A stretch of DNA of 28,332 nucleotides. It comes from Nitrososphaeria archaeon (GTDB lineage Archaea > Thermoproteota > Nitrososphaeria > JACIWG01). The notes beneath the pieces were generated by a model that worked only from the letters and a program-made list of their open reading frames with translations, searched no databases and was not told where the DNA came from. The translations under genes and the position numbers were made by a program. Shown in pieces: positions 1 through 26,047 of the stretch (position 1 is the stretch's first letter; each line of letters opens with the position of its first letter). The stretch covers positions 1 to 28,332 of the forward strand of contig JBEKIG010000020.1 of NCBI GenBank assembly GCA_050011875.1, read 5' to 3'.

Positions 1-126
1 GACTTCAAGATCAGTAACTTGCCAATTTCTCCAGTCTATTTCCAGTTCTTTGATTGTGCCTATTTTCTCGTTGGTTCCAGTATAAACATCTTTATCCAAA
101 ACTTCCTTACTTTTCACATTTATCAC
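1..126 (-). CDS. PRC-barrel domain protein, N-terminal part (runs off the window)
   Basis: Not in the ORF track. From GTG at 117 (in-frame GTG also at 126) it reads MKSKEVLDKDVYTGTNEKIGTIKELEIDWRNWQVTDLEV, the PRC-barrel pattern (lxgkdVyxxxGekIGxVkdlxiD). TTTATAA lies about 25 nt upstream of 126. Confidence 0.75.
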   Translation of the reverse strand, partial: MINVKSKEVLDKDVYTGTNEKIGTIKELEIDWRNWQVTDLEV

Positions 127-259
127 TTTATAAAATTATTTCTTACTAACTTATAAACATTTTGCTTAGTATTACTTCCCTTCTATTTTAACAACATGGG
201 GCAGTTGAGGACTTTCTCTTTAACAGTGCCGAATATTGACTTTTGCTGGCTCATGGGAG

Positions 260-451
260 CTAATCTTCTTTTTTCTTATGAGCAGCTAGTACTATTACTC
301 CACCAACTGCCAGACCAGCTAAGAATGCGACCGCTAAGGCTGCTCCCGGATGCTCTATAGTTAGAGTCTGCGCTTTGTCAACTCCTCCTTCTACATCTTC
401 TCTAAGTTTTTGTATACCGCGATTTACCTGATCAAGCGAATCCTGTGACAT
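260..451 (-). CDS. DUF883/ElaB/YqjD-like tail-anchored small protein
   Basis: Charged helical N-terminus, then EHPGAALAVAFLAGLAVG, a TM helix and a basic tail. TATA box about 24 nt upstream of the ATG (leaderless). Confidence 0.65.
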   Translation of the reverse strand: MSQDSLDQVNRGIQKLREDVEGGVDKAQTLTIEHPGAALAVAFLAGLAVGGVIVLAAHKKKED

Positions 452-507
452 ACTTTATAGATTAACAATGACTCTTATAAATCTTATGACGATATCGTAT
501 TCCACAG

Positions 508-759
508 ATGATTGAGCCGCTACTAAAAGGCGCTATTTCGGAAGTCAAAGAAGAACTAAAGAAAAAAGATGATAGGAGACTTGAAGAATTAAAAAAGAAC
601 GTTGGAGAACTAAAGAGCCAAAATAAAGAAATAATCACTTAGCAGACAGAAACAACAGAATTAAGACGTACAGTTAAAAGTCAAAAAAGCATAATCTCTC
701 GGCTGGGGCACATCTTTGGTGCTATTATTTTCGTTATTCTCTGGTATGTTTTGTATTAG
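508..759 (+). pseudogene. Coiled-coil protein with a C-terminal TM anchor, interrupted by an in-frame TAG at 640-642
   Basis: MIEPLLKGAISEVKEELKKKDDRRLEELKKNVGELKSQNKEIIT*QTETTELRRTVKSQKSIISRLGHIFGAIIFVILWYVLY*. The heptad pattern continues across the stop. Confidence 0.55.
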
Positions 760-924
760 TTTATTCTAATTTTTCTCTTTATCCGTGGTTTCAAAGTGTA
801 ATTCAACTACCAAGCTATTTCTTGGACGATCATAGCAGTTTTGTCAGTGAAGAACAAGGTCAAACCTAAAGTCCTTGAAATTAGAATAGAAAAACTTTGA
901 ATTTACTCTGAATTTTTTAAGAGG

Positions 925-1970
925 TTAATCATTTCGTACTCTAATTCTTTTTATAGTTGGTATAATGATACCACGAAAACCTTCATTTATGATAAAATTA
1001 ATATCACTCGTTGACCAAGCGGATTCTGCGACGCAACCAAGATTACAAGTTTTACAATTGTTGTATTGAGAATACATTTTCTGTATGTGTTTTGACTTCC
1101 ATACATTCGATAATCGTTGTTCCAGTAGGTTAATTTTATGGTCATTTGTGAAAAGACAAGGTGTTATCAAAAAACCTCTATGATCTATTTGCACATATTT
1201 CCAGGGATTACATGCATAGTCAAAATGACCTAATTGATTGACGTATCGTATAGAATTACTAATGGGGTATAATGATTTATGATCCAAAATAACTTGTTTG
1301 ACATAATGTATTTGCTCATGTGTTGGCATAAATTCTTTTGCCTTCGAGCCACCATTTGGATCCAATAAAAAGTTATAGTATCCATGTTAAGTTCGTCAAA
1401 AACCATGTGAATTAATTCATGGATTTCATCTGCATTTCTGTTACTTATAGTAACAACTGCACTCACTTCTGTTTGTGCCTTTAATGTGCTCAAACCATCC
1501 ATGAGTAAATGGATATTTTGTTTAATCTGCTCTAACCAATCTTTCCCTCTAATTTCAATATACATCTCTGGGTGTATGGTGTCTAGAGAAATTCCAATAA
1601 AATCGAAATTTTCAGCTATCTTTTCTATATGATCTTTATTGAATAAACTTAGATTTGTAACAACCATAGGAATAAGACCTTGCGATTTTGCATGAGACGC
1701 TAGTTCAAATAAATCTGAACGAAGAAAAGGCTCACCTCCACTAAAAGTCAAGGTAACAGCACCTATTTTTGCTAAATCATTGATAATTCTTTTCCATCCT
1801 TCAGTATTTGGTTCGTTTTCTTTTTTATTTTTCCACATATCACAATAGTTACATCGAGAATTACATAAAGAGGTGATTTTAAGATACGCATAGGTCGGTC
1901 GTTTGACAGAAGTAACTATATGATTATACGCATAATTTTCTATAAACTTCAGACCATGTGATTTTTTCAT
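925..1970 (-). pseudogene. Radical SAM protein with SPASM/twitch domain, split by a single frameshift near 1367-1371
   Basis: The N-half has CNSRCNYC and GGEP. The likely start is ATG 1970, after GAGGAAGGT. The C-half (925..1365) has C...PC and CKTCNLGC. One extra T in the T5 run joins the frames into ...ITFLLDPNGG, about 348 aa. Confidence 0.85.
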
Positions 1971-2381
1971 ATGTTTACCTTCCTCGCACTTTAGGCGTTC
2001 CCATAATATAATTAATATATATATTAAAATAATTCTATTCATATCCTTATGACGCAAAAGATTTTAGGGGGAAACATACTCTAATTTGCTTGTCTTAATC
2101 TGCTAAAATTGGCGATAAGAGCCTTCCCAGGAAGAAGAAGGATTTAAAAAAATTGGGATAACACTATCCATGATCTACCCATTGTACCCAAGAAAATCAA
2201 AGAGGTTGTGCAATACGGCTTCAAGCCTCCCTATCGCTAAAAAGGTTTTGAAAATAATCTCACTTCTTAGACTATGATCATAGCAAACTTGACAAGTACT
2301 CTGACCAGAGTTACATGAAAGAGAAGCTGGGAGAATGGTTTATCGTCTCCAGGAAAGGAACAGAAGTTTAATTTATATTTA

Positions 2382-2549
2382 TTAGACTCCTATAAGTAGT
2401 TCCACGACAAAGATGACAGCACCAATGATTAGGGCTATTTTCCCGACACTCATCAGCCCACCCACTTCCTTCACTAAGGCGGCTACAACCATGAGTAGGA
2501 TGCCCAGAACTATCAGTATTACACCGATGTCGCCATTAAATACGAACAT
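2382..2549 (-). CDS. 55-aa two-TM small membrane protein
   Basis: Below the ORF-track cutoff: MFVFNGDIGVILIVLGILLMVVAALVKEVGGLMSVGKIALIIGAVIFVVELLIGV. TTATATA lies about 24 nt upstream of the ATG. Confidence 0.75.
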   Translation of the reverse strand: MFVFNGDIGVILIVLGILLMVVAALVKEVGGLMSVGKIALIIGAVIFVVELLIGV

Positions 2550-2732
2550 AAATATGAAGATCTACAGTGAACTATATAAGGATTAGGACAGATGGTTCTG
2601 TCAACTTATAGGCTCATCTCTCTGAACTTTGTCGGTGTTAACTGTCGGCTCATATTCAATGAGCCTGTCTTGGCAATATCCTTCACTTCATTAACAAAAG
2701 GGTTTATTAACCCCAAAGTGTATTCAAAAATC

Positions 2733-2888
2733 ATGAGCAAAGAAGAAGTAAAGGGAAAAGGTAAACAGATCAAGGGAAAGATTCGTGAAGAAGTAGGCAA
2801 ATTGACAGATAACAAAACGGAACAGCTTAAAGGTAAGATTGAGAAAGCTGACTGCCCTATAGCTTTGTCAATGTTGCGCATATTCTAG
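2733..2888 (+). pseudogene. CsbD/YjbJ-like general stress protein, 3' end apparently replaced
   Basis: MSKEEVKGKGKQIKGKIREEVGKLTDNKTEQLKGKIEKA matches the CsbD pattern, then changes abruptly to DCPIALSMLRIF at about 2850. TTTATTA at 2703-2709 supports ATG 2733 rather than 2592. Confidence 0.75.
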
Positions 2889-3011
2889 ACCTCTTTTCCT
2901 TCTTGTATTTTTCTTCTGTCTTTTGCTTCTTTCACCAAACCCGCTTCCAACTGTGGATTTCCTCTGCATGTCTTTTCCCACAGTATATTCTGAATTCTTC
3001 TTCGCTGGCAT
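2868..3011 (-). CDS. 47-aa basic hydrophilic small protein
   Basis: MPAKKNSEYTVGKDMQRKSTVGSGFGERSKRQKKNTRRKRGLEYAQH. TTTTAAATA lies just under 30 nt upstream. Confidence 0.5.
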   Translation of the reverse strand: MPAKKNSEYTVGKDMQRKSTVGSGFGERSKRQKKNTRRKRGLEYAQH

Positions 3012-3119
3012 ATTAACTCTTTTTTCTATATGGATTTCATATTTAAAAAGATTCTGCTAGAGAGGCAGGTGCAAAGTTTATTAGGCAAGACGAGATTGAT
3101 TCTTATTTGAGTGATTTCG

Positions 3120-3254
3120 ATGTCTTTATTGGATAAAAATAAGAAGAAGGCTGAAGAGGAAGCGAAAGAGTTTGTTGAGGCTGCCACAAAAAAGGGGAAA
3201 AAGGGACAAAAGGAGCGGAAGAAGTATGATGATCATCAGGTTTTATACCGTTAA
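3120..3254 (+). CDS. 44-aa Lys/Glu/Ala-rich hydrophilin/LEA-like peptide (possibly degraded)
   Basis: MSLLDKNKKKAEEEAKEFVEAATKKGKKGQKERKKYDDHQVLYR. AAAGTTTATTA promoter at 3073-3083, similar to the CsbD promoter. In-frame GTG at 3111. Confidence 0.5.
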   Translation: MSLLDKNKKKAEEEAKEFVEAATKKGKKGQKERKKYDDHQVLYR

Positions 3255-3880
3255 AGGAGGCTATTTCACTAAGAGCATAAGCTATCAATGGCTTAGACAA
3301 CTAAGAAGCTATAGAAACAGCTAACGAGCCTTAATTTTTGTCCACGATTATAATGGAAGGCAAAAGTTGTTGTGACTTATCTTTTTGTTAATCTGTTCTT
3401 ATCTGAATGACTGAATGTGTAAACAAAAGGCTTATATTTTCTGTGAAGTGGATCTTAACGAAGAAGGTTTATTTTAGAAAGAAAATTTTTAGAACCTGAA
3501 ATTATTTCTAATGTCGTGAGTTTGATTTTGTGTAAATCAGCTCACTATCGATAATAATATCCCAAAAAAATATAAAAGTATTTTTAGAGTAAACTTTATA
3601 GACCGTATAAACTTTATTATATGATTTTTATTTGTAGATTATTACCGCAGGATTTATAATCCCGGACGCCACATTTTCTCTTAGAAATTTAACTATCTTA
3701 TCTATTAATATTACCAAAAACCTAGCTCGTCATACAAAGCAATTAATCACCTTTATTGCCTGTGCTGCGTATAATCAGACGATGCCTTCTGTCAGATACC
3801 CGTCCACAGTTCTCTGCACTATTTTAACCAACGCACCAATCATCCATACTATCGTTACTTCTGCCTTATTAGGCACTACA

Positions 3881-4015
3881 TTATGGAATCCTACAACTCG
3901 TGGTATAATTTCCTCCGAATTCTGTGTCGAGTTCTACGTTAAGAACCTGCCCTGAGGCGAAGGCGTCCTTACTAAACACTATCGTAAACTTTCCCTCCTT
4001 GCCCCCAGGTATAAA
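3881..4015 (-). pseudogene. C-terminal remnant of a probable surface/pilin-like beta-sandwich protein
   Basis: FIPGGKEGKFTIVFSKDAFASGQVLNVELDTEFGGNYTTSCRIP*, with no start codon. Followed by the hairpin TGCCT-TATT-AGGCA (3862-3875). The family call is tentative. Confidence 0.4.
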
Positions 4016-4165
4016 AAGTTCAAACTGATTGAGACACTCGCAGATAAAATTGCAGATAAATGTCTAGAAGATCATAAAATAAGTAAAGTTAAGGTAAGGG
4101 TCGAAAAACCTACTGCACTTAAATTTGCAGAAGGCGCTGGAGTGGAGGTTCTTAAACATGCGTAA
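4016..4165 (+). pseudogene. folB: Dihydroneopterin aldolase, C-terminal half only
   Basis: KFKLIETLADKIADKCLEDHKISKVKVRVEKPTALKFAEGAGVEVLKHA* carries the FolB motifs LIETLA, VxVxKP and GVE. The N-terminal half and start codon are missing. Confidence 0.85.
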
Positions 4166-4226
4166 AGATTTGCAGTCCAGCGAAGTATGTAATAGGCAAC
4201 TAGCGAAAATATGTATCTGATATATC

Positions 4227-4697
4227 TTAGGCCCTCTTTATCCTAGAATACACGACATATTCGAATTCTGGAAAGTCCTCCCTGCTTTCTAATTCCCATT
4301 CGCTCAAGTCGAAACTTGGAAAGAATTTATTGCCCGCGTACTCTTTCTTAATGTACGAGAGGTACATTCTATCTGCAATCCCAATTGTATGTTCGAAGAT
4401 GCTTGCTCCACCTATGATAAAGACATCAGCATCAGCATAAGATCGAGCTTTTTTCAGGGCTTCACTTATACTTTTGCATACTTCAGCTCCTTTCACAGAC
4501 TCAATCGACCTTGAGATCAAAATTGCGTGCTTTCCTGGTATATTTTTCATTGATTCAAACGTTTTCCTGCCTAGTATGACAGTCCCGCCAGCGACAAGCT
4601 TTTTGTAGCGTTGCATCTCCTTTGGAATGTGCCAAGGCAGTTTATCATCATTACCTATAACCTTGCTTCTTGTCATTGCAGCCACTAACGAGATCAA
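4227..4697 (-). CDS. folA: Dihydrofolate reductase
   Basis: ISLVAAM...VIG...LPWHIPKE, GRKTFES, FIIGGA, FFP motifs. The start is probably TTG 4697, after GGTGAT (the track gives ATG 4715). Confidence 0.95.
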   Translation of the reverse strand: MISLVAAMTRSKVIGNDDKLPWHIPKEMQRYKKLVAGGTVILGRKTFESMKNIPGKHAILISRSIESVKGAEVCKSISEALKKARSYADADVFIIGGASIFEHTIGIADRMYLSYIKKEYAGNKFFPSFDLSEWELESREDFPEFEYVVYSRIKRA

Positions 4698-4716
4698 TAT
4701 AAAATCACCAATCATC

Positions 4717-5211
4717 TTAGTTTAACTTCCGGCCATCGCCAAGGATGGATAAGTCATTCTTTGGTATTTCAGAGTATAATTGTCCAACAGCCTTTTTATA
4801 AATAGGGTGGATAATTTCTGGGTTTAAATCCATGAGGGGTCTTAGAACGAAGTCTCTTTCATGAAGTCTTGGATGTGGTATGTCAAGCTGCCCATCGTGG
4901 TAGATAAGATCATCATAGAACAGTATATCTACATCGATCTCTCTCGGCCCCCCATTGAATCTGCGTATTCTTCCTGTATCTTTCTCAACTTGCTTGACAA
5001 ATTCTAAAAGTTGTATTGGCGAAAGCTCTGTTTTGCCTTCCAACACCATATTCAAGAAGTTATCCTGCTTTTCATATCCAACAGGTTTTGTTTCGTATAC
5101 AAGCGATAGTTTTATCTCTTGAATCTTCCGTCTTAGAAGTTCAATTGCTTTTTTGAGGTTAGAGGCTCTATCACCTACATTTGAGCCCAATGCCAAATAG
5201 ATTTTCGCCAT
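4717..5211 (-). CDS. folK: 2-amino-4-hydroxy-6-hydroxymethyldihydropteridine diphosphokinase (HPPK)
   Basis: YLALGSNVGDR, YETKP, FLN, GPREIDVDIL, IPHPRLHERDFVL. Confidence 0.97.
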   Translation of the reverse strand: MAKIYLALGSNVGDRASNLKKAIELLRRKIQEIKLSLVYETKPVGYEKQDNFLNMVLEGKTELSPIQLLEFVKQVEKDTGRIRRFNGGPREIDVDILFYDDLIYHDGQLDIPHPRLHERDFVLRPLMDLNPEIIHPIYKKAVGQLYSEIPKNDLSILGDGRKLN

Positions 5212-5220
5212 AAAATAACC

Positions 5221-6105
5221 TTATTTTTTGTTTCTTAGAAGTGCATCCAGTGATACTGTAAATCTCTTCGTTTGTAATACATCATGTGTGCGTATGATGT
5301 GCGCGCCTTCCATTACTGCAATAGCCGTTTCTGCTAAAGCAGCTTCTATTCTGTCTAGCTCGGTAGGTACATAATCCAGTTTTAATTCATTCTTTAGCAA
5401 TTTACCCAAGTGGCTTTTTCTTGAAACGCTGACTACAATTGGGAGTCCTATTTTTGAGATTTTTTGAAGCTGTACTATTAGTTCTAGATTCTGCTTTAGG
5501 GTCTTACCGAAGCCAATCCCTGGATCTATTAAGATTTGGTTTTTACCTATCCCAGCCTTTTTTGCTATATCGATCTGCGATTCAAAGAAATGACATATTT
5601 CTTTCACTACATTTTTATAGTGAATGTCTTGTTGCATTATTTTTGGAGTGCCTTTTATATGGTAAATTATGATTGGACATTTAAACTTCTTGATAATCTT
5701 TGACAGCCTTCTATCAAAATTAAATCCAGATAATGAGTTTATCATGTCTGCACCAGCCAAAAGTGCTTGTTCGGCAACTTCTGCCTTGTACGTGTCCACA
5801 GAGATGAAAAAGCTATTTCTTAAGGAAAGTCTGATGTTTTTAATTACAGGGATTATTCTATTTAATTCCTCTTTAATGGTAATCGGTTTTGACCCCGGTC
5901 TTGTTGATTCTCCACCTATATCTATAATATCTGCACCTTCATCAAGCATCTGCCTTGCTCTGTCTACTGCATTATCTATATTGTTATAATAGAGACCTCC
6001 ATCTGAAAATGAATCCGGGGTAATATTCAATATCCCCATTATTCTAGTATTATTATCTAATCTAAGAATCTTATTTTGGTACTTTACTTCAAACTCTCTG
6101 CTCAT
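5221..6105 (-). CDS. folP: Dihydropteroate synthase (bacterial type)
   Basis: MGILNITPDSFSDGG, DIGGESTRPG, SVDT, DPGIGFGK, SRKS, IIRTHDV. SD GGAGGT. Confidence 0.97.
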   Translation of the reverse strand: MSREFEVKYQNKILRLDNNTRIMGILNITPDSFSDGGLYYNNIDNAVDRARQMLDEGADIIDIGGESTRPGSKPITIKEELNRIIPVIKNIRLSLRNSFFISVDTYKAEVAEQALLAGADMINSLSGFNFDRRLSKIIKKFKCPIIIYHIKGTPKIMQQDIHYKNVVKEICHFFESQIDIAKKAGIGKNQILIDPGIGFGKTLKQNLELIVQLQKISKIGLPIVVSVSRKSHLGKLLKNELKLDYVPTELDRIEAALAETAIAVMEGAHIIRTHDVLQTKRFTVSLDALLRNKK

Positions 6106-6188
6106 AACTATACCTCCATTTTAAATTAGGCGTCCAATCCTTTTATTAATGTACTAGTATATAACACCGAAAAAGGTAACATTCCACA

Positions 6189-6233
6189 GAGATACCTACA
6201 TTCCCAAAATCACGCTGGGGATATAGGTATCTC
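6189..6233. repeat. 18-bp inverted repeat / hairpin with 9-nt loop upstream of folP
   Basis: GAGATACCTACATTCCCA (6189-6206) pairs with TGGGGATATAGGTATCTC (6216-6233): 16 Watson-Crick pairs, one G-U and one mismatch. Confidence 0.8.
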
Positions 6234-6248
6234 AGAAAACGGGAGTCT

Positions 6249-6626
6249 TCAACTCGTTCTTACCTTTTCTATGCCGTCCTTTATTGCTGTTACTATCTTG
6301 CAGGCACGCTCCAAGTTTGCACTTGATATGCTCCCAACATTCGGCGCCACCTCCACCCTAATGTCCATGTCTTTCACAAAATTGAGGACTTCAGAAAACA
6401 CCTTTGTTGCGAGAGTTTTGAAAGCGGATGAAATGTCGGTGCTCTTTATTAGCTCTGTCTCAACCCCTCTGGGCATCTCAACTCCCAGCCACTTGAAAAA
6501 GTCAATGTCATAGTGCGTGCCTATGGGAGCAACACCCACAAAGAAAGATGCAGGCCTTATCCTCCTGTAGCTGCATTTTGAAACGTAATCTTCCAGTACC
6601 CGCCCCATTGTATTCGGCTCAAAGAT
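6249..6626 (-). pseudogene. C-terminal fragment of a methylenetetrahydrofolate reductase-like protein
   Basis: IFEPNTMGRVLEDYVSKC...PASFFVGVAP...IDFFKWLGVEMPRGVETEL...NVGSIS resembles the C-terminal third of atypical (mycobacterial-type) MTHFRs (DY..C...P....FlxWLGvxvP). An in-frame TAG lies just upstream. Confidence 0.55.
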
Positions 6627-6629
6627 CTA

Positions 6630-6895
6630 GACTAATAGTAAGAGTAGAGAAAGAAGAGTTTAACGGACCTTATCTTCAGATACCTTTTATTCTTCATCGA
6701 AAGCGTTTTCAACTGTTCTCATTGTTCTCCATTTTGACTATAGGCTTGTTTATATCAGGTTCGTCGGGTGCTATTGCGTCTTTAGCTGCGAGTTCAGGAT
6801 TTACATTCATTTCGCAATGGTTAGTTGGTGTAATTGGTACAGCTCTTTCAGTGATTCCTATTGCTTGGCTAAAATTAAAAACATCTACCGAGTAA
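6630..6895 (+). pseudogene. C-terminal fragment of a membrane-anchored hypothetical protein
   Basis: RLIVRVEKEEFNGPYLQIPF followed by two hydrophobic helices. The upstream part of the track ORF is simply antisense to the MTHFR-like fragment, so there is no credible start. Confidence 0.4.
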
Positions 6896-7136
6896 TTTCT
6901 TTTTTATTACTAAATTCCTTAATACAGTTCATATAAATACAATCAGATATGCCATATTTCTTCTCATATTCTCTTACCTTCCTAATGAATTGTTGATTAT
7001 CGGACTCTATTGTTATGTAGTCCAGGTATCTAATACTTATTTCTTTATCGACTCTGCAAAAGAACTTTTCACATACAAATATGAAGAAACTCGCCAAAGG
7101 GCTTAAGACTCTATACGATATTATAGGATTTATCAT
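6885..7136 (-). CDS. Hypothetical protein or fragment
   Basis: 83-aa ORF overlapping the upstream ORF. No motif recognised. Confidence 0.3.
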   Translation of the reverse strand: MINPIISYRVLSPLASFFIFVCEKFFCRVDKEISIRYLDYITIESDNQQFIRKVREYEKKYGISDCIYMNCIKEFSNKKEITR

Positions 7137-7392
7137 ATTTCTTTAGTATTCTCTTGATCTTACGGCTTCTATTCGGATCCTTTCCAGTAAGAGATTGGTA
7201 CTTCATAAGGAGGTAGCTTCTTAACTCAGAAATGTTATCTGCGATCTTAAGTGCAGGGACATAGAATTCGCTTAAAGCTTCTATTTGTCCTGCACCCCTT
7301 AGAGTATTAACCAGTGGCTCACGTGATGGAAGGTTCAGGAAAGTAATTGTAAAAGAGTCTAACACATCATTTTTCTCATCTGACAACTTCAT
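7111..7392 (-). CDS. Hypothetical protein (could be a frameshifted continuation of the HEPN ORF)
   Basis: 93-aa ORF overlapping the end of 7376..8080 by 17 nt. Confidence 0.4.
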   Translation of the reverse strand: MKLSDEKNDVLDSFTITFLNLPSREPLVNTLRGAGQIEALSEFYVPALKIADNISELRSYLLMKYQSLTGKDPNRSRKIKRILKKYDKSYNIV

Positions 7393-8080
7393 TTTCTTTC
7401 ATTCCCCAATGAGAGAGGGCTCCCCTCAAGTCAGTGACATATTTTCCTTCAAGATCTATTTCAGAATCGTTAATGATTTTTTGAACTCTGGCAGTAAATG
7501 TATCCGAGGAATAATAATATGCACCTAGAATCTCCAGGGCAATGTAATAACTTACAAACATATCTATGTGATTCGTTTCTATCAGGCCCCTATTGTACCA
7601 TTTAAAGCAGTAGTGAAAGGCGTCTGACTTATCCACGAGCCTATCCAAAGCATTGTAGATCTCATACATATAATCCAAACATTCTTTATCAAAGCTAGTA
7701 AACTCTCTTCTAGCTTCATCTATAAAATGACCCATGTCGCTAACGACTTTGTTGTTTGAATAAGGTAGTTCAGACATTTTATTTATGGAAGATATATCGT
7801 ACAACTGTTCTTCTATCTCCAAGCCCACATTTGTTGAGAGCACAAAAGAGTAAATCATTCTTTCCAGTGAGCCTTTTGCCTTTTGTATTGCTTTCTCTTC
7901 ATCTTCTGCCTCCAAGCTGATAACAGCTTTCTTACAATTGTCAAAAAGATATAGTTCAGTTTCATGTACATCTTTGCTTGGAGGAAAATGAATTGGTTTA
8001 GAGATGTTTGTACTTGTAAAAGGTTTTTCCTTAAGTTTAATATAGTAAGTAATTGAATATTTCTCTAAAACCATATGCAC
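7376..8080 (-). CDS. ApeA/MauJ-like HEPN domain protein
   Basis: Beta-rich N-terminus, then KWYNRGL...DMFVSYYIALEILG and an R-x4-H motif RGALSH (7409-7426). Confidence 0.65.
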   Translation of the reverse strand: MHMVLEKYSITYYIKLKEKPFTSTNISKPIHFPPSKDVHETELYLFDNCKKAVISLEAEDEEKAIQKAKGSLERMIYSFVLSTNVGLEIEEQLYDISSINKMSELPYSNNKVVSDMGHFIDEARREFTSFDKECLDYMYEIYNALDRLVDKSDAFHYCFKWYNRGLIETNHIDMFVSYYIALEILGAYYYSSDTFTARVQKIINDSEIDLEGKYVTDLRGALSHWGMKENEVVR

Positions 8081-8228
8081 TGATTTATATCTGACCTAAT
8101 TTTAAGGATTTAGCTATTTGTAATACTAATATAATGAGCTTATTTAAGAATTCTCATGATCCAAATGAGGTGATAGGGAGGGAACAGATGTGATCATTGA
8201 ATAAGGTTAAGTCTCTATGAGATATATA

Positions 8229-8261
8229 TGCACATTTTTGTGCACAAAAGCCTTAATTAAG
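8229..8261 (+). promoter_or_regulatory. trp operon promoter with overlapping palindromic operator(s)
   Basis: TGCACA-N4-TGTGCA (8229-8244) and the perfect 14-mer TTTTGTGCACAAAA (8236-8249) sit on the BRE directly before the TATA-like CTTAATTAAG (8252-8261). Confidence 0.65.
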
Positions 8262-8292
8262 CCATTTATCTACATTTTGGAGCATAAGGGGT

Positions 8293-9726
8293 ATGGAAAG
8301 ATTGGATATCGTAAAAGGCAATGAGCCAGCTGGTGCTCACACATCATTTGAAACCATTCACCGTTTGAAGCTTAGAAAGCTCACTTTTGGGCTCTCTCCT
8401 ATTGAAGTCTTCTCGAAATTCTACAAACAATGCGACAGCGTGTACATTCTTGAGTCAATAGAAGGTCCAAGGAAGCTAGCTCAGTACTCGTTCATTGGAT
8501 TCAATCCTATTTTGACAATCAAAATAAAGAACCGAGAAGTCGTAGTCCAAAACGAAAAAACTGGTGAGAAAACAAAAGAGAAAGCAACTGATCCACTACA
8601 TGAAATAAAAAAAGTTCTTGAAGGCCAACCAATTCTATATAGAAGGCTTAGGTTTGTGGGTGGAGCTGTTGGATATGTCTCTTACGATACCGTAAAATGC
8701 TGGGAAAGGCTACCAGACATAGCAGTCGACGGATCAAGATTCCCTGATGTTGAAGTAGGAGTGTATGATGACGGCATCGTGTTTGACCATAGGAAAAGGC
8801 AAACATTCTACTTTTATTCTAACGAAAACCGTCTATGTGAGGTGAACAGGCTGATGGAAGAGCCTACTGATTCTGAAACTTTTTCTTACGGGCAACCAAA
8901 AGTCAATGTCAGTAAAGAATACTTTGAAAAATCCGTAGAAAAAGCGAAAGAATATGTGGCTGCAGGCGATGTTCTTCAAGTCGTTCTGTCCAAACGCTAC
9001 GAATTCCGTATTAAGGGTAGCATGATAAACTTTTATCGCTCCCTCCGAAAGATAAATCCATCGCCTTACATGTACTTTCTGAAAATGGGTGACCGACAGA
9101 TTGTTGGCTCCAGTCCTGAAATGCTGGTAAGAGTTGACAACAGAATTGTTGAAACTTTTCCTATAGCGGGTACAAGGCCTTGTGGTGGAAACTCTAGCGA
9201 AAGCAGAAGATTAGCTAAAGAGCTGCTGTCAGATCCTAAAGAACGTGCTGAACATGTAATGCTTGTGGATCTGGCTAGAAATGACATTGGAAAGGTTTCG
9301 AAGTTTGGAAGCGTTCGTGTTCCGGAACTCATGAGGGTTCACAGATACAGCCACGTGCAACACATTGTTTCGCAGGTGACGGGCAACCTTAGGGAAGACT
9401 GTGACTGTTACGATGCATTGAGGGCTGTTTTTCCAGCTGGAACAGTATCAGGAGCGCCTAAGGTTAGAGCAATGGAGATTATTGAAGAACTCGAGCCAAC
9501 GAAAAGAGGACCTTATGCAGGTGCTGTTGGCTACTTTTCTTATAATGGTAACGCGGACTTTGCAATCGCCATCAGAACCCTTTTTGCTGTCAAAGACGAA
9601 GCTTACATTCAAGTAGGAGCTGGAATAGTAGCTGATTCCGTCCCAGAAATGGAATGGTTTGAAACGGAGCACAAAGGCAAGGCACTGATGAAAGCATTGG
9701 AAGCCTCAGGAGACGAAATGGCTTGA
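8293..9726 (+). CDS. trpE: Anthranilate synthase component I
   Basis: ILES, NPSPYM, GSSPE, PIAGT, AEHVMLVDLARND, FPAGTVSGAPK, GAGIVADS. Confidence 0.97.
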   Translation: MERLDIVKGNEPAGAHTSFETIHRLKLRKLTFGLSPIEVFSKFYKQCDSVYILESIEGPRKLAQYSFIGFNPILTIKIKNREVVVQNEKTGEKTKEKATDPLHEIKKVLEGQPILYRRLRFVGGAVGYVSYDTVKCWERLPDIAVDGSRFPDVEVGVYDDGIVFDHRKRQTFYFYSNENRLCEVNRLMEEPTDSETFSYGQPKVNVSKEYFEKSVEKAKEYVAAGDVLQVVLSKRYEFRIKGSMINFYRSLRKINPSPYMYFLKMGDRQIVGSSPEMLVRVDNRIVETFPIAGTRPCGGNSSESRRLAKELLSDPKERAEHVMLVDLARNDIGKVSKFGSVRVPELMRVHRYSHVQHIVSQVTGNLREDCDCYDALRAVFPAGTVSGAPKVRAMEIIEELEPTKRGPYAGAVGYFSYNGNADFAIAIRTLFAVKDEAYIQVGAGIVADSVPEMEWFETEHKGKALMKALEASGDEMA

Positions 9727-10313
9727 AAGTTCTGGTTATCGATAATTATGACTCCTTCGTCTACAACCTCGTTCAATGTATAGGGGAACTTGGAGGAGAC
9801 GTTGTCGTCTACAGAAACGACCAAGTAACTCTGGAACAAGTGATGAATCTTAGACCTGACAGAATAGTCATCTCCCCCGGTCCCGGCACACCTGAGGATG
9901 TGCGATATTTCGGCATATGCTCAGCGATCCTACGACATGTTAGCTGCAGAGTTCCCACATTGGGTGTCTGCCTCGGGCATCAAGGAATAATCTATGTCTT
10001 CGGAGGGAGAGTTGTGTCTGCACAAAAACTGATGCATGGAAAAACGAGCTTGATAAAACATGACGGGAAAGGCATTTTCAAGGGCGTCAGAAACCCTTTC
10101 ACTGCTACGCGGTATCATTCGCTCGTTGGAGATAAGCGTTCTGTTCCCCCATGTCTAGAAGTGACCGCAGAATCCCTCGATGATGGAGAAATCATGGGAG
10201 TCCGCCATGTTACCTATCCTATCGAAGGAGTACAGTTTCACCCGGAATCTATCCTTTGCGAAGATGGAAAACTAATCATGAAGAACTTTGTCGAAGGATG
10301 TGATAAGGGATGA
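9723..10313 (+). CDS. trpG: Anthranilate synthase component II (glutamine amidotransferase)
   Basis: IDNYDSF, SPGPG, GVCLGHQ, RYHSL, QFHPES. TTGA overlap with trpE. Confidence 0.97.
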   Translation: MKVLVIDNYDSFVYNLVQCIGELGGDVVVYRNDQVTLEQVMNLRPDRIVISPGPGTPEDVRYFGICSAILRHVSCRVPTLGVCLGHQGIIYVFGGRVVSAQKLMHGKTSLIKHDGKGIFKGVRNPFTATRYHSLVGDKRSVPPCLEVTAESLDDGEIMGVRHVTYPIEGVQFHPESILCEDGKLIMKNFVEGCDKG

Positions 10314-11371
10314 TTAGAGAAGGCATAGCAAAACTTACCGAGCGAGAAGACCTATGTTACGAAGAATCACAAGATATAATGAAAGAAATTATGTCTGGAA
10401 AAGCAGAGTCCACCCAAATAGCTGCATTCTTGACCGCTTTAAGGATGAAGGGAGAGACGGTTGAAGAGATTACAGCATTCGCAAAGGTTATGAGAGAATA
10501 TTGTAGGCGAATTCACCCTCTTGTCAGAGGTCGGCTGGTTGACACTTGCGGAACTGGCGGAGATAAAATAAAGACCTTCAACATCAGCACCGCAGCGGCT
10601 TTTGTCGTTGCAGGTGCAGGGGTAACCGTAGCCAAACATGGAAACCGATCAGTTACTGGCAAGAGTGGAAGTGCTGACGTTTTGGAGAGACTCGGCCTCA
10701 ACCTTAACATGAGCCAAGAAGCCGTTGAGAAAGCAATTGAGAACGTAGGACTAGGCTTTATGTTCGCTCCAGCCTTCCATCCGGCCATGAAGTTCGCTGC
10801 AGGTCCTAGGAGAGAACTAGGTATCAGAACAGTGTTCAACGTTCTTGGTCCTCTAACGAACCCAGCCAACGCAGATGCTCAAGTACTTGGAGTCTACGAT
10901 CACAGACTGACAGAACCTCTAGCTCACGTTTTGAACAACCTTGGCTGTAAGGAAGCGATGGTCGTCCATGGCCTAGATGGATTGGACGAAATTTCCACCA
11001 TAGGTAAGACGGTTATTTCATGGTTGAAGCAAGACGAAGTCTCAACCATTGAAACAGTCCCAGAAGACTTCGACGTTAAGCTAGCTAGGCCAGAAGAAAT
11101 AGAGGGAACCACACCAGACGAAAGCGCTGAAATCACCTTCAAGATTCTCAATGGCTGCGTTGACGCTAACGATCCGAAGAGAGAAATAGTTTTGGTCAAC
11201 GGGGTCGCAGGCATTATTGTAGGCGGTAAGGCTGAAGATTTCGGTTACGGCATAGAACTAGCTCGCGAATCAATCGAGAGCGGTGCTGCCTACAAAAAAC
11301 TCAAAATGTTAGTCAAAGTCTCTGATGGAAACCTCTCAAAGCTTGAGGAGTTTGAGCTGAAGTATGCCTGA
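10310..11371 (+). CDS. trpD: Anthranilate phosphoribosyltransferase
   Basis: DTCGTGGD, NIST, KHGNRS, GSADVLE, GLDE. ATGA overlap. Confidence 0.98.
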   Translation: MIREGIAKLTEREDLCYEESQDIMKEIMSGKAESTQIAAFLTALRMKGETVEEITAFAKVMREYCRRIHPLVRGRLVDTCGTGGDKIKTFNISTAAAFVVAGAGVTVAKHGNRSVTGKSGSADVLERLGLNLNMSQEAVEKAIENVGLGFMFAPAFHPAMKFAAGPRRELGIRTVFNVLGPLTNPANADAQVLGVYDHRLTEPLAHVLNNLGCKEAMVVHGLDGLDEISTIGKTVISWLKQDEVSTIETVPEDFDVKLARPEEIEGTTPDESAEITFKILNGCVDANDPKREIVLVNGVAGIIVGGKAEDFGYGIELARESIESGAAYKKLKMLVKVSDGNLSKLEEFELKYA

Positions 11372-12224
11372 TTTTCTTGACATGTTAGCTCGGGATGCGA
11401 AGGAAACGATCAACAGTGGCTACTACGAGGTTTCAACCCTAATTTCAACTCCTTCTATCAGCTTGGAAAAGGCGATCGTTCAAAGCAAATACATTCCAAT
11501 CATCTCCGAAATCAAAGCTGCCTCACCTTCGTTAGGCACGATTAGAAAGAACCTTAACCCAGGGAAAGTTGCAGGAGCTATGGAAAAGGGTGGAGCGGTG
11601 GGAATATCGGTACTGACTGAGCCAAAGCATTTTGAAGGGTCTCTTATTTGCCTCGCCAAAGTTCGGAAGGCAGTAAAACTTCCAATCCTTATGAAAGACA
11701 TCATCATCAGTACAGCACAGCTCGAAACTGCCTCTAAAACTGGCGCAAACGCTGTACTTCTTATAGAAGCCCTTTTTGAGAGAGGATACTGCGAATGCGA
11801 CATTCATGAAATGATTGCCAAAGCTCATTTGAAAAATCTTGAAGTCCTATTGGAAACCCATAACATGGATGAGTTTCAGTTTGCAGTCAGTAGCGGTGCT
11901 GATCTGATCGGCATCAATAATCGAAATCTTGGGACATTGAAAGTGGATCTTAACGTCACAAAGAAAATCTTAGAAAAAAATGGCACTAACGGGATAACTG
12001 TCGTGAGCGAGAGCGGAGTCGAAACGCTCAATGATCTCCGCTTTCTATACAAGTGTGGCGCTCATGCCTTTTTGATTGGATCAGCAATTATGTTGGCTAA
12101 TGACATCGAAAAGAAAGTCAGGGAGTTTGTGTTGGCTCTTGACTGGCGTTGGACTGAAACAAATGACCAAGGCTCCAAGAGAGCCATGGAGTCCATTGAA
12201 CGCAAGGAGGATGTCAGAGCATGA
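11364..12224 (+). CDS. trpC: Indole-3-glycerol phosphate synthase with a 27-aa C-terminal extension
   Basis: [43 protein letters not shown]. Confidence 0.95.
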
Positions 12225-13420
12225 AGAAATTAAGTCTATATCCAGTTGGCGGAAAATATGGTAAATATGGTGGGCGTTTCGTTCCAGAAACGCTAATGGA
12301 GGCGCTTGGAGAACTAGAGGAAGCTTATGAGCGAGTCAAGAATGACCCAACCTTCAAAAAGGAACTAGAGTATTACCTGTCAGAATACGCTGGGAGACCA
12401 ACTCCATCATACTATGCAGAGAATTTGACAAAGAGATTAGGTGGGCCAAAAATCTACCTCAAACGGGAGGACCTTGCCCACGGAGGCGCTCACAAAATCA
12501 ACAATACTCTTGGACAAGCCCTCCTTGCAAGAAGAATGGGGAAGAAAAGGGTTATCGCTGAAACTGGAGCAGGTCAGCATGGGGTATCTACAGCCATGGC
12601 CTGTGCTGTTCTCGGGTTAAAAGCTGAGATATACATGGGTGCTGAAGACATGAAAAGACAGAAGCTCAACGTTTTCAGGATGAAGCTGCTGGACGCTGAA
12701 GTTCACCCTGTAGAAGCTGGCTCTAAGACATTAAAGGACGCCATCAACGAAGCTCTGAGAGACTGGGTTACCAACGTTCAAACAACATATTATCTAATAG
12801 GATCAGTTGTAGGTCCACACCCGTATCCAATGATCGTCAGGGATTTCCAAAGCGTCATAGGCTGTGAGCTTAAGGAGCAGGTCATGCAGAAGGAGGGGCG
12901 ACTACCAGATGTGTTGGTCGCATGTGTAGGAGGCGGAAGCAATGCCATAGGCACTTTCTATCCCTTCTTGGACTATCCGCAAGTCAGAATGTACGGAGTT
13001 GAAGCAGGTGGCAAGGGAATAGAATCCGGCAAACATGCAGCCACCCTATGTGCCGGAGACGAAGGGGTCTTCCATGGCATGCTAAGTTACGTTCTCCAAG
13101 ATAGAGACGGTCAAATACAGGCTACACATAGCATATCTGCAGGCCTCGATTACCCAGGAGTCGGACCAGAACATTCCTTTCTTAAAAGTAATCAAAGAGT
13201 TCAATACGTCAACGCGACCGACGAGAAGGCTGTGAATGCTTTCCTTATGCTCTCAAAAGAGGAGGGCATAATCCCCGCTCTGGAACCATCACATGCCCTT
13301 GCTTTCACCATGGAGCTGGCTCCAAAGATGAAGAAGGAGGAAATAGTTGTGGTCACCCTCTCTGGACGCGGAGACAAGGATGTTGAAGTGGTGGCTGACA
13401 GCCTAGGTGCAAAGATATGA
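12221..13420 (+). CDS. trpB: Tryptophan synthase beta chain (TrpB1)
   Basis: GAHKINN (PLP lysine), [42 protein letters not shown]. Confidence 0.98.
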
Positions 13421-14226
13421 GGGAAATAGGCAGGGTTTTCCAGAAGCTCAAGGAGGAGCGCAGCGGAGCTCTCATAGGCTACATTATGTGCGGAGACCCC
13501 AAACCAGAGCATACGCCCAAGATTGCCCAAGCACTAGTCCAAGGTGGAGTAGATATCCTAGAACTTGGGTTACCCTTCTCCGATCCAATAGCCGACGGAC
13601 CAACAATACAAGCCGCCAGCGTACGTGCACTAAAAGCGGGAACAAAACCTAGGATGGTATTAGAAACCGCCAAACAAATCAAGGAAGAACATCGTATACC
13701 TATTGCAATCTTAACGTACTATAATCCAATCTTCAGAATGGGACCAGATACCTTCTTCAGATCGGCAAGAGACTGCGGAGTTGACGGTGTAATCGTCCCC
13801 GACCTGCCAGTGGAGGAAGCACATGACTACAGAAAGACTGCTGAAACTCACGAAATAGACACAATTTTCCTCGCAGCACCATCCACCTCCACTAGAAGAC
13901 TTCAAAAAATAGTCAAGTGTACTTCAGGCTTTCTCTACCTTGTCTCCAGCCTCGGGGTAACCGGAGAAAGGATGAACATTCAAGATTCAACCATTCAACT
14001 GATCAAGAAGTTTAAACCATACACAGCTGGACGAATCCCTCTGGCCGTAGGCTTCGGAATCTCTACATCCGATCATGTCAAAGCCGTCATCGAAAACGGA
14101 GCAGATGGAGCAATAGTGGGCAGCGCCTTTGTCAACATCGTCAGGAAGAATCAGAGAAACAGCAGAAAAATGCTAGATGAAATAGAAGAGAAAGCGCGCG
14201 ACCTGAAAACGTCAACCAAAACATAA
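13417..14226 (+). CDS. trpA: Tryptophan synthase alpha chain
   Basis: [38 protein letters not shown]. Confidence 0.98.
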
Positions 14227-14456
14227 TCACCTTAATAGGTCGGGATATCCTTTGAGCTTAAAGATAGGTCTAAGATTTGGTTCAACTGTGAAGCAGAAAG
14301 CATTTGGTTCGAAACAGACATGGCGATCTATCTAGCAACATGCAATCCCAGCTTTGAAACCTTTCTAGAAAACATTATACTACACCAAGAGCCATAACAA
14401 AAATTGCCACAGCTTGTCCGGGACACTATGCAGATGTTATGTGATTGGGTACTGGT

Positions 14457-14600
14457 TTAGCTATTGATTTGCTCATAAATATGATCAAGTTCTAAATAGA
14501 AGTTCCGCAGAGTTTCATTGTTGTTGACGACGAAGTCAGCGCGATGTTCTAGTTCATCGCTTCCAAGTTCAGTTTTGGCCATCTCGAAATTCCCTAAAAC
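14457..14600 (-). pseudogene. C-terminal remnant of a P-loop nucleotide kinase-like protein
   Basis: NFEMAKTELGSDELEHRADFVVNNNETLRNFYLELDHIYEQINS* fits the ADxxixNxxtlxxl tail of NMP/dephospho-CoA kinase-like proteins. Upstream frame contains stops. Confidence 0.45.
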
Positions 14601-14896
14601 GTCTGACAAAACGGTGTCTGATCAAATGTCTAATCAAGATATGGCAAAAGGCGATGTTAAGCAATGACACATTATTTGGTTCGCGTCGTTGAATACTTCT
14701 GGGATCCTCTTGCAAAATTTGTCCGACATAAGCCTATAGCTAGTAGGAGCATTTTTCTGCCCGATAACCATGATGCATTTGTTTAAATCAGGGTCCAATT
14801 CTGAAAAACTTTTTTATAATACATGGAAAAAAGAAAAAAACTTTGGAGCGTACGTTATAAGTGCAGTGGAAGAACAATACTATAAAGGTTGACAGA

Positions 14897-15050
14897 CTAT
14901 TGTTTAAGGATGAAAAGATTTTCTCAAAAGATGAGCAACTGAATCTTAAACCTTCGACAATAAAAGAAGTTGTAAAATTGTTTGAGTATATTGATCTTCA
15001 TGGTATTGATGAGGATTTAAATGGTAGGCTGTTTGAAAATTTCTTGACGG
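14897..15050 (+). pseudogene. Internal fragment of a type I-like N6-adenine DNA methyltransferase
   Basis: IFSKDEQLNLKPSTIKEVVKLFEYIDLHGIDEDLNGRLFENFL is the segment that normally precedes GQFFTPR, which is absent here. Confidence 0.7.
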
Positions 15051-15155
15051 TAACTGATAATAGAGTTATCCAATCAAGAGAAAATTTGGATCTAGCTCAT
15101 CAAATTGGCTGAGAAGTACTCAAAACTCTATATGACTTATTATTTAATAGGTGCA

Positions 15156-15578
15156 TTAATTGCAACATTTGCCTTTTGGTATCAGGTCTCCGTGAGGGCA
15201 CTGTCTCGGGTGTTTTAATAGTGTACATAGGGCATCCATGAACTCTTCGTCCATATGGTGCTCCATTCCGCAAACATTTTCTTCACTGATGTTCGTCTTT
15301 AGAGTTTCCTTCATCAACACTTCAATCAATCTGTGGGCGCGAATAATTCTTCTGGCTATTATTTTTCCCTTATCTGTAAGTTGAATTCCTTGTCTGGGCA
15401 CATATACAACAAAGCCTTCTTTTTCTAACTTCTTTAGCATCTCCACGGCGCTAGGCGCAGATATTCCTAAATGATTTGCCACCCACTTTATTCGTGCTAG
15501 TCTCTCCCCACTTTCCTCTGATACCCAAAGCGCCTCTAGATACTCTTCAACGCTCTCGGATACTTCCTCAGCCACCAT
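15156..15578 (-). CDS. DtxR/MntR-family metal-dependent transcriptional regulator
   Basis: EEYLEAL, wHTH, HRLIE, CGMEHH, CPHG. Ends in KCCN. No FeoA/SH3 domain. Confidence 0.95.
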   Translation of the reverse strand: MVAEEVSESVEEYLEALWVSEESGERLARIKWVANHLGISAPSAVEMLKKLEKEGFVVYVPRQGIQLTDKGKIIARRIIRAHRLIEVLMKETLKTNISEENVCGMEHHMDEEFMDALCTLLKHPRQCPHGDLIPKGKCCN

Positions 15579-15952
15579 CGAGTATAGTGAATTAAACTAT
15601 CATAGATATAAAGTTGAATTCCAATACATTTAGCGAATGCTTCAATAAACATCGACTATTCTCTGAAACTCAAACCCACCTACGGCATTTTCTGCTCCCC
15701 AATCAGATCTGGAATCTGGAAAGTTTATGAGGTCTGTTACCCACATCTTAAAGCAGCCTAGATTCTGAGAAGATGTCTCCAAGCGTTATTGCAACTCCGA
15801 TTTCGGCTATATTTAAGATGGCAGTGGCCTTATAGCTGAATTCTCTATTCATTGTAGCTCTCCATGGAATGTAGATTTTGATGACGAAGGCGAAGATATA
15901 TTCTCATAGCCAAAAGCACATATCCAAAGTTACTTTCAAGAAAATGATGGGC

Positions 15953-17149
15953 CTAAAGGAAGGAAGCAAAGCCGAGGATTCCAGTTATTACTATCAAAAC
16001 TGACACCACCCAGAACACCATCATCCACTGCGTGCTATGCTGATGTCCATTCATCACCTTGGCGTCTGAGACAAGTCTGCCCAGAAAGTACAGAGAAGGT
16101 ATAATGATTATTGGGTATATGATCATCAAGTTCAGCATGAGCTGGATGTAGCCTGTCACTGTAGCTACAAGGATTACAGCTGGGAGGCTTTCAAGTGCAT
16201 AAACCGCGATAAATGAAGCCTTTGAGGTTTGGCCGGTTGCCTCTAGTACACCCCAGGCTGAGCCAAGGGATATGGTGATAAGGGCGAGAAAGCCTGCAAA
16301 GAGGAAACTCATCCCCATAATTAGGGAAGCGTACGGCCCGAAGAAAGGTAACACTTTTGACAGTTCTTCTACATTGATTAGGTTGGTCCCACCTGAAAGG
16401 CGTATCCCTGCCACAACCACTATTATCATCAGAATCTCCGAGACCGTAGCGCCGAGTAAGGTCTCTATGCGTTCATTCTTCAGGTCCTTCGCCTGCTTCT
16501 CCCTTCGGCAATCTGCACCCGAGTGAAAGTACAACATCCAGGGCATTATAACAGCACCTACGTTTGCTGCAAGAAGATAATCGAAGGATGGCTCACCATA
16601 CGGCTGGAGGGGAGAAAGACCTACGGAGAGAAACTCTTTAATGTCGATGTGGAAGACAAGTGCTGAGGCTGCTATTACGGCTACGACCAGGAAACTCAGA
16701 GGTATGAGTATTATCTCGGCCTGCCTGTATCGTTTACCAATTACAACCACCGTGTGAATCATGTACGCCGATAAGATGCCTAGGAGAACCGGTATACCAA
16801 GGAGACTGAGGCCTATAGCTATCCCGGCATACTCGGCTACATATTCAAGAAAGTCTGTCACACCCATAGGGATGGCGGCCATCATAGCCGCACGTTTTCC
16901 ATAGAATCTTCTTATGGCCGCACCTAGTCCAAGACATGAAGCAATTCCCAGGCTGCCTGCCGCATATTGAACGAGGAATAGAGGAAATATAAGTATTAGG
17001 AGGATGAATATCATTCTGTAACCGAAGCTAGCGCCAGCTTGAAGGGCTGCAATGATAGAGGGTATGTCTACGTCCGCTATCATTACAAGCCAAGCTGGCC
17101 CAAAATTCGTAAGCCAATCAACCACCATAGAAGCACTATGGTTACGCAT
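15953..17149 (-). CDS. NRAMP-family divalent metal cation transporter
   Basis: FGPAWLVMIADVD, GASFGY, AEYAG, GAVIMPWMLYFHS, about 11 TM helices. Confidence 0.92.
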   Translation of the reverse strand: MRNHSASMVVDWLTNFGPAWLVMIADVDIPSIIAALQAGASFGYRMIFILLILIFPLFLVQYAAGSLGIASCLGLGAAIRRFYGKRAAMMAAIPMGVTDFLEYVAEYAGIAIGLSLLGIPVLLGILSAYMIHTVVVIGKRYRQAEIILIPLSFLVVAVIAASALVFHIDIKEFLSVGLSPLQPYGEPSFDYLLAANVGAVIMPWMLYFHSGADCRREKQAKDLKNERIETLLGATVSEILMIIVVVAGIRLSGGTNLINVEELSKVLPFFGPYASLIMGMSFLFAGFLALITISLGSAWGVLEATGQTSKASFIAVYALESLPAVILVATVTGYIQLMLNLMIIYPIIIIPSLYFLGRLVSDAKVMNGHQHSTQWMMVFWVVSVLIVITGILGFASFL

Positions 17150-17186
17150 GTTAACAAAATTAAGTAGCTTTTTATGATCCGTAGCA

Positions 17187-17230
17187 ATATATTAGGTCAG
17201 CCTAATATATATATATTTAGGTCTTCCTAA
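17187..17230. promoter_or_regulatory. Tandem DtxR/MntR-type operators flanking the NRAMP TATA box
   Basis: ATATATTAGG-TCAG-CCTAATATAT (17187-17210) and TTAGG-TCTT-CCTAA (17217-17230), both TTAGG-N4-CCTAA, 25 bp apart, around a TATATATA tract. Confidence 0.85.
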
Positions 17231-26046: not shown

Positions 26047-26047
26047 T

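Follow-up and report, generated by a model that had tools for sequence, protein, structure and literature searches.

A bacterial-type folP-folK-folA operon in the genome of a peat Nitrososphaeria archaeon

Most archaea use MptD/MptE, and archaea are well known to have taken up bacterial metabolic genes. What does a bacterial-type folate operon do in an uncultured archaeon, and how did it get there? The window analysed here, the whole of contig JBEKIG010000020.1 (28,332 nucleotides, 28.3 kb), belongs to a 2.64-Mb genome bin of a Nitrososphaeria archaeon (GCA_050011875.1; 97% complete) and carries folP, folK and folA side by side. The original prediction, made from the letters of the DNA, described this region as a horizontally acquired, partly eroded bacterial-type cassette and as a candidate for an undescribed system. 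The first of these claims agrees with the distribution of the genes, the phylogenetic trees and the comparison with a sister genome: the three enzymes are intact, foreign in origin, genome-specific among the relatives of the host, and truly part of its genome. The second does not hold, because all three are ordinary members of well-known families. We consider it probable that this peat archaeon recently acquired the operon as a late-pathway folate module, which relies on salvage or on unrecognised substitutes.

The operon and its leader consist of the following features.

5221-6105, minus strand: folP, dihydropteroate synthase (DHPS), 294 aa, the first gene of the operon (PF00809 and TIGR01496)
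4717-5211, minus strand: folK, hydroxymethyldihydropterin pyrophosphokinase (HPPK), 164 aa, the middle gene (PF01288 and TIGR01498)
4227-4715, minus strand: folA, dihydrofolate reductase (DHFR), 162 aa (156 aa from a TTG start), the last gene (PF00186)
6106-6170, minus strand: folP leader, containing GGAGGT (6112-6117, ending 6 nt upstream of the folP ATG) and a TTATATA box (6157-6163)

The predicted intact and closely packed arrangement was borne out. There are three full-length open reading frames (ORFs) on the minus strand, the spacers read from the sequence are 9 nt (folP-folK) and 1 nt (folK-folA), and each protein is full-length in alignment with solved bacterial enzymes. FolP matches PF00809 with 269 bits (cut-off 25.5) over profile positions 1-244 of 244 and TIGR01496 with 298 bits (cut-off 162.6), and aligns with solved DHPS across residues 18-291. 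It also keeps all 57 of the 57 invariant columns in an alignment of 23 sequences (the window protein and 22 relatives). Full-length matches above curated cut-offs and retained conserved residues thus identify it as a DHPS; the conserved columns presumably include those that form the active site and the pterin pocket. FolK is an HPPK, with 136 bits for PF01288 (cut-off 25.7) and 139 bits for TIGR01498 (cut-off 54.1), and its residues 3-150 align with solved HPPKs. FolA is a DHFR, with 141 bits for PF00186 (cut-off 25) and a full-length alignment to solved DHFRs. In its pocket, the Glu of the window motif P-K-E-M aligns with the Asp of P-N-D-L in chain 8uvz_A, a position that we take to be the catalytic acid.

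The presence of folP together with folA on acquired DNA, with NCBIfam Sul and Dfr models among the matches, could also point to a mobile resistance pair of the sul and dfr type against sulfonamide and trimethoprim. However, all Sul and Dfr models score far under their cut-offs (Sul4 215 against 600, Sul3 133 against 475, DfrE 107 against 347, and DfrA12/A21 96 against 330), while the housekeeping DHPS model passes, and a resistance cassette was therefore rejected. Moreover, native targets that such a pair could protect, a DHPS or DHFR_1, are lacking in the family, and the scanned ORFs included no integron or transposon genes. We regard a resistance pair as extremely unlikely.

The putative expression signals proposed earlier, a TATA element near 6160 and GGAGGT, are both present in the leader, with the TTATATA box about 50 nt upstream of the folP ATG. 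Searches for tRNA genes and for Rfam families, which would include a tetrahydrofolate (THF) riboswitch, returned no match. As stated in the original prediction, folP is more AT-rich than the trp operon further along the contig, having a GC fraction of 0.351 against 0.43-0.48 for the trp genes (the cassette genes lie at 0.35-0.41). The same-contig native genes, however, span 0.345-0.478, so the low GC of folP is not diagnostic as a foreign marker.

Among the kin of the host, the operon is restricted to this genome. Pterin_bind (DHPS) was found in none of the nine genomes of the host family, and HPPK and DHFR_1 each occurred in one of 41 relatives, the window genome only, leaving none among the other 40. 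Within the class, HPPK was detected in 13 of 401 genomes, in two families (5/11 and 7/17 genomes), at 36-44% identity to the window FolK; at the level of the phylum, FolK-like proteins likewise numbered 13 of 401 genomes, at 44% identity or less. The FolP proteins of the class itself are 29-36% identical to the window FolP.

The sister genome G001, of the same genus as the host and 94% complete, provides the closest comparison. Its DNA is 93-96% identical to the window over 15959-17262, 20181-22230, 22505-26833 and 27174-27935, and 88% identical over 15059-15673; its ACD alpha subunit is 98% identical to that of the window. The left part of the contig is different, as follows.

3707-15058: segment of 11 kb without a counterpart in G001, save for two short pieces of repeat (34 and 58 bp); it contains the folate cassette, three ORFs (6885-8080) and the trp operon (8293-14226)

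The cassette is thus both absent from the closest relatives and phylogenetically foreign (see below), as is characteristic of an islet. No simple empty site for the cassette could be defined in G001, where the flanks fall on different contigs, because the left flank is made of multi-copy repeats. Directly left of the cassette, 2675-3706 holds repeats shared with G001 (84-97%) and with other contigs of the genome (78-94%), and window positions 1-3706 as a whole are largely multi-copy repeat DNA common to G001 and to the other contigs of the host. More specifically, 1-500 and 2675-3706 are composed of 60-200-bp repeats with 78-100% identity to host contigs C1, C3, C6, C8, C21 and C22 and 81-97% to several G001 contigs. 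Such short multi-copy repeats occupy variable regions of both genomes.

To which lineage, then, do the genes belong? In a collection of 5.8 billion proteins, the nearest FolP and FolK proteins are 62-72% identical to those of the window. The longest contigs listed for the nearest FolP and FolK pair up in size (2370, 3349, 30459, 14178, 5787 and 3678), which we read as the nearest relatives of the two proteins sitting on the same contigs. The next named matches for FolP and FolK come from Candidatus Gottesmanbacteria (61%), a Patescibacteria group bacterium, and the Aquificota Hydrogenothermus, Persephonella and Sulfurihydrogenibium. Two metagenome contigs, L091 and L093, encode FolP proteins 57-60% identical to that of the window in the gene order folP-folB-folE. 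The longer one, L093, continues after folE with pabC and a pabB-folK fusion, and the presence of FtsE and release factor 2 (RF2) next to them marks it as bacterial. A scan of genome contigs gave at least 80 loci, all bacterial by title among the matches listed except for one metagenome-assembled genome labelled Methanosarcinales, at 50% identity or less.

An IQ-TREE phylogeny with 52 rows of FolP groups the 11 relatives from the class in a clade of their own (support 100, branch length 0.84), apart from the other 41 rows. The window FolP nests among the latter, in successively larger clades that count 2, 9, 16 and 21 rows (support 97-98); the Patescibacteria-named rows fall in the clade of 16, and Aquificota enter in that of 21. 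A FastTree phylogeny of 142 FolP rows agrees with this placement, and in the FolK tree the same three nearest neighbours appear as for FolP. A joint origin of folP and folK from the Patescibacteria-named clade is therefore well supported; the two genes would have come together from this clade, with Aquificota next out. FolA has different nearest kin: its nearest matches are 59-60% identical and lie on contigs of other listed sizes than the FolP and FolK kin, and in its tree it belongs to an 11-row clade (support 98) without labels, which adjoins a group with one Woesearchaeota-named protein. The congruence of phylogenies that the original prediction asked about is accordingly found for FolP and FolK, which share a Patescibacteria-like clade, but not for FolA.

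Vertical inheritance would require that the cassette was ancestral and was lost in every sampled relative. It draws some support from the two class families with HPPK and from an approximately unbiased (AU) test, which permits a tree uniting the window FolP with its 11 class relatives (log-likelihood 26.4 lower, p=0.174). We read this test as weak, since a long-branched group attaches almost anywhere at modest cost, yet it gives no rejection. On the other side, FolP and FolK reach only 29-36% and 36-44% identity to the proteins of the class compared with 54-72% to the bacterial-type clade, and in the unconstrained tree the window FolP nests within the 41 rows that a branch with support 100 sets apart from the relatives in the class. 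Together with the missing genes in the family and in the 40 relatives, and with a sister genome that at 93-96% identity lacks the cassette, this makes vertical inheritance very improbable.

A foreign gene cluster in a metagenomic bin could also be an artefact, the left half of the contig being foreign DNA that entered by misassembly or mis-binning. The contamination estimate of the bin is 4.83%, the contig is a mosaic relative to G001, and assemblies break at 6218-6256. These points are offset by several independent data sets. Over 2771-6223 the L090 metagenome contig is 100% identical to the window, apart from an additional 130 bases at 2850. Another study supplied run X2, whose contigs span 447-2762, 2850-3270, 3296-6218 and 6256-8840 without differences and with depths of 8.2, 8.2, 8.0 and 8.8, respectively, so that the depth is even (8.0-8.8) from 447 to 8840. 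L090 and the X2 contig 3296-6218 physically connect the genus-specific repeats (2771-3706) to the cassette. In run X3, 100%-identical pieces of folK, of the trp genes and of the native right half occur at similar depth (2.4-4.6). The folC gene on a 196-kb contig, described below, follows the same genome-specific pattern. No coverage or composition break of the kind expected of a chimeric contig, as considered in the original prediction, was seen: depth is even, GC lies within the native range and the independent assemblies agree. We therefore hold an artefact to be highly doubtful. The runs that contain host sequence come from peat, with one soil metagenome in addition that has a small share of the words. 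Runs X1 and X4 have no contigs over about 4003-8004, a gap to which we attach no meaning; in X4, sequences 95-99% alike to the trp genes and to the left flank are present.

Position 2850/2851 is a local irregularity, with the 130 additional bases in L090, a 129-bp gap at the matching place in G001 and loose ends in the Logan contigs. This site, in or beside a CsbD-like small ORF, looks variable or assembly-collapsed.

The operon is bordered by remnants of two further genes and by a hairpin.

4010-4165, plus strand: C-terminal remnant of FolB (dihydroneopterin aldolase), about 50 codons (PF02152, 46 bits; stop-to-stop frame 3956-4165)
6249-6626, minus strand: C-terminal third of a divergent gene resembling methylenetetrahydrofolate reductase (MTHFR), with an ORF of 119 codons at 6249-6608 and homology extending to 6626
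6189-6233: inverted repeat with 18-nt arms (89% complementary) around a 9-nt loop, separating the folP promoter from the MTHFR-like stub

All five folate-related elements of the original prediction are thus found where it placed them, and the genes on both sides of the cassette are indeed truncated. The FolB stub covers only profile positions 64-112 of 113 in PF02152 and is not a complete domain. It lies beyond the 3' end of folA and runs convergently towards it on the opposite strand, an orientation that the prediction did not mention, and it is the only FolB match of the genome. Its sequence shares 45-47% identity with the C-terminal parts of the FolB proteins encoded at L091 and L093. No N-terminal half of FolB was found by Pfam searches (E<=10) on upstream frames or by low-stringency tblastn with two FolB proteins.

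Searched against Pfam at E<=10, the MTHFR-like ORF (6249-6608) itself gave no match. An exhaustive HMMER search with it gave 88 representatives at E<=0.001, most of them 277-345 aa long, and the ORF aligns to the last 105-115 residues of its homologues (about residues 170-285 of about 290). Of 15 homologues scanned, 13 have weak matches to PF02219 (MTHFR) or PF19345 (MTHFR_2); the cut-off of MTHFR_2 is reached by four and that of MTHFR by none. The ORF itself has neither a direct profile match nor the complete barrel of about 290 aa, and its link to MTHFR runs through the homologues only. By tblastn, homology of the stub extends from 6626 to about 6280, with an in-frame TAG exactly at the homology end, and neither the missing N-terminal part (about 170 residues) nor a second copy was found in the whole genome. 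The family, with its length of about 290 aa and weak MTHFR_2 similarity, appears uncharacterised. It includes several representatives of 136-144 aa, and all five shown (P0362, P0366, P0397, P0415 and P0423) begin alike, just before a conserved FFTTQ; the gene may be split naturally in these cases, or gene calling may repeatedly produce the same effect. We take both stubs to be debris of larger foreign or rearranged fragments. Three independent contigs end at the inverted repeat: L090 stops at 6223, and the X2 contigs stop at 6218 and begin at 6256.

Beyond the MTHFR-like stub, three ORFs of 83, 93 and 234 aa lie on the minus strand at 6885-8080, before trpE. The ORFs within 6885-8080 have no Pfam match, and PADLOC and PHROGs were also empty for the four ORFs between 6548 and 8080. 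The trpEGDCBA operon (8293-14226) that follows lies inside the segment lacking in G001, and no trpF was noticed among the scanned ORFs. TrpE was not found in any of the four family genomes searched (G001, G002, G004 and G007), and G008 has DNA 72% and 67% identical to trpB and trpA, respectively.

What could the three enzymes achieve in this genome? In our survey of folate genes, folC, folE, serine hydroxymethyltransferase (SHMT) and a ThyA-like gene were present in the host, while FolD, PabB and MptA were not found. The folC gene (TIGR01499, 357 bits) occurred in one of 13 genomes, the host only. It resides on the 196-kb contig in a 1794-bp segment, in place of which G001 has 60 bp between flanks 91-93% identical; here an empty site was found. 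At a distance of 80 bases from the folC insert (L205 8835), contig C9 of G001 (L210 4962-5880) carries 917 bp that the host lacks, and this site is an insertion/deletion hot spot in both genomes. In contrast to folC, folE is shared by the host and G001, where it is clustered with a 6-pyruvoyltetrahydropterin synthase (PTPS) gene and a pterin-4a-carbinolamine dehydratase (host contig C3, 146-149 kb; L206 8295-10306). The probable role of this cluster of folE, QueD-type PTPS and dehydratase is in preQ0/archaeosine synthesis. At a distance of 1 kb, another ORF weakly matches the Met_synt_B12 activation domain. SHMT was found in 12 of 13 genomes, and ThyA-like genes in 7 of 13, including 6 of 8 in the host family. 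A single class-IV aminotransferase gene is present in the host.

From these gene contents a route can be proposed. FolK would pyrophosphorylate hydroxymethyl-dihydropterin, FolP would condense the product with p-aminobenzoate (pABA), and FolA would reduce dihydrofolate (DHF). The separately inserted folC, the native folE and the SHMT and ThyA-like genes of the lineage would complete a THF supply and a thymidylate cycle for which other members of the family lack the genes. The cassette together with these four genes could provide the synthesis of dihydropteroate and dihydrofolate, and the recycling of DHF, that the family lacks. With neither a FolB nor a PabB function encoded, this route would require salvaged hydroxymethyl-dihydropterin and pABA, or unrecognised substitutes.

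Several observations count against a recent gain of a working module. The pathway has holes: no MptD, no PTPS-III and no complete FolB were found in the host genome; PabB was not found in it, TrpE of the window being its sole chorismate-binding enzyme; and searches for FolD and MTHFR (no PF02219 match) were likewise negative. Around the cassette, no composition break, no integrase or transposase in the scanned ORFs, no tRNA and no flanking direct repeats were found. No independent contig was seen that bridges the hairpin (6219-6255) or joins the cassette to position 15059 onward. The tree uniting FolP with the class was not rejected, as described above, and the direct donor could be another archaeon, since the relatives at 62-72% identity carry no taxonomic label.

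A bypass of FolB by PTPS-III was also considered. In the available part of the pertinent study (PMC5041015), the motif CxxxHGH is assigned to the QueD/PTPS-I type and ExxHGH to the FolB-bypassing PTPS-III (COG0720). The only PTPS of the host genome has the motif C-R-N-L-H-G-H, i.e. CxxxHGH and not ExxHGH, and as the sole PTPS is of the QueD type a bypass is not indicated. The likeness to the PTPS-III route is confined to a PTPS-family gene beside folE; the motif and the single PTPS set the host apart (PMC5041015, available part).

The missing functions could instead mean that the operon is a decaying leftover, the three intact genes belonging to a larger foreign folate island that is being lost and no longer to a working pathway. 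The two truncated folate-related genes that flank the operon, as well as the functions of FolB, PabB, FolD and MTHFR that were not found, would fit such decay. It is harder to reconcile with full-length, closely coupled ORFs that keep their conserved residues, including all the invariant FolP columns, and with the presence of identical copies in the runs of three studies (one of them possibly the source sample). Decay is also at odds with the independent gain of folC at another locus, an event that would make no sense unless the pathway is in use. We consider a leftover unlikely.

For the acquired module that we favour, a more specific version can be put forward tentatively. Within roughly species-level divergence (93-96% DNA identity between host and G001), a THF route may have been put together piece by piece from the foreign operon, the separate folC and the folE of archaeosine synthesis, without recognisable FolB or PabB. 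Pterin and pABA (or pABA-glutamate) from peat would be recycled, or unrecognised substitutes would act in their place, TrpE/TrpG being one candidate for the aminobenzoate. The TrpE/TrpG pair neighbours the cassette in the same 11-kb genome-specific segment.

How does the locus compare with known systems? An operon of Patescibacteria (Candidate Phyla Radiation, CPR), folP-folB-folE-pabC-pabB~folK with a CofE-like ligase, is similar in its proteins (FolP 57-60%, FolK 49% and the FolB stub 45-47% to L091/L093). In the window, by contrast, folK is free-standing directly after folP, folA is present as an extra gene, folB is reduced to a stub on the opposite strand, and the cluster is without folE, pabB and pabC, the glutamate ligase being a classical FolC encoded elsewhere rather than a CofE-like one. 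With the bacterial late folate pathway of E. coli, Staphylococcus and Bacillus the window shares the same FolK, FolP and FolA families, with full-length alignments to solved structures, whereas it differs in that the operon sits in an archaeon, behind archaeal-style leader signals, and that neither a complete FolB nor PabB was found. The DHPS of other Nitrososphaeria belong to the same PF00809 but are 29-36% identical, form their own support-100 clade on a long branch and are encoded in open frames mostly of 280-530 aa, often longer than that of the window. Judged by literature listings on archaeal folK/folP transfer and on folate in Nitrososphaeria/Thaumarchaeota, no earlier description of such a transfer was found. 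Nonetheless, as a case of transferred genes that fill in a vitamin pathway it is clean but unexceptional, with no new enzyme or mechanism.

The original prediction had referred to the Bathyarchaeia and their methanopterin-linked (H4MPT-linked) C1 metabolism, and had suggested a hybrid pterin pathway or a shift of C1 carrier. The Bathyarchaeia framing is unsupported: archaeal AmoA was found in 10 of 10 searched genomes of one family within the class of the host, a family that accounts for 224 of 400 other genomes sampled from the class. AmoA was found in none of nine genomes of the host's own family and not in the host genome, from which we conclude that the host is a non-ammonia-oxidising member of the Nitrososphaeria. 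The available part of a paper on Gagatemarchaeaceae (PMC10640624) makes no mention of folate, and we do not claim that the host belongs to that family. The H4MPT framing does not apply as worded either. According to the part of PMC11897584 that is available, trimethoprim inhibits a cultured member of the class only in vitamin-free medium. With this sensitivity in the class, SHMT and ThyA-like genes in the family and neither MptA nor MptD found in the host genome, a hybrid pathway or a carrier shift is not needed, and neither was shown. Folate use within the class is not exotic.

For automatic reconstructions of metabolism the locus is a caution, as three intact fol genes do not amount to a complete pathway here. 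An uncultured soil archaeon from a family without DHPS, HPPK and FolA-type DHFR can gain steps of a vitamin pathway via several small transfers, and the sister genome G001 offers a clean before-and-after comparison and with it a dated example of pathway gain. The finding bears on the prediction of vitamin dependencies and cross-feeding in peat communities.

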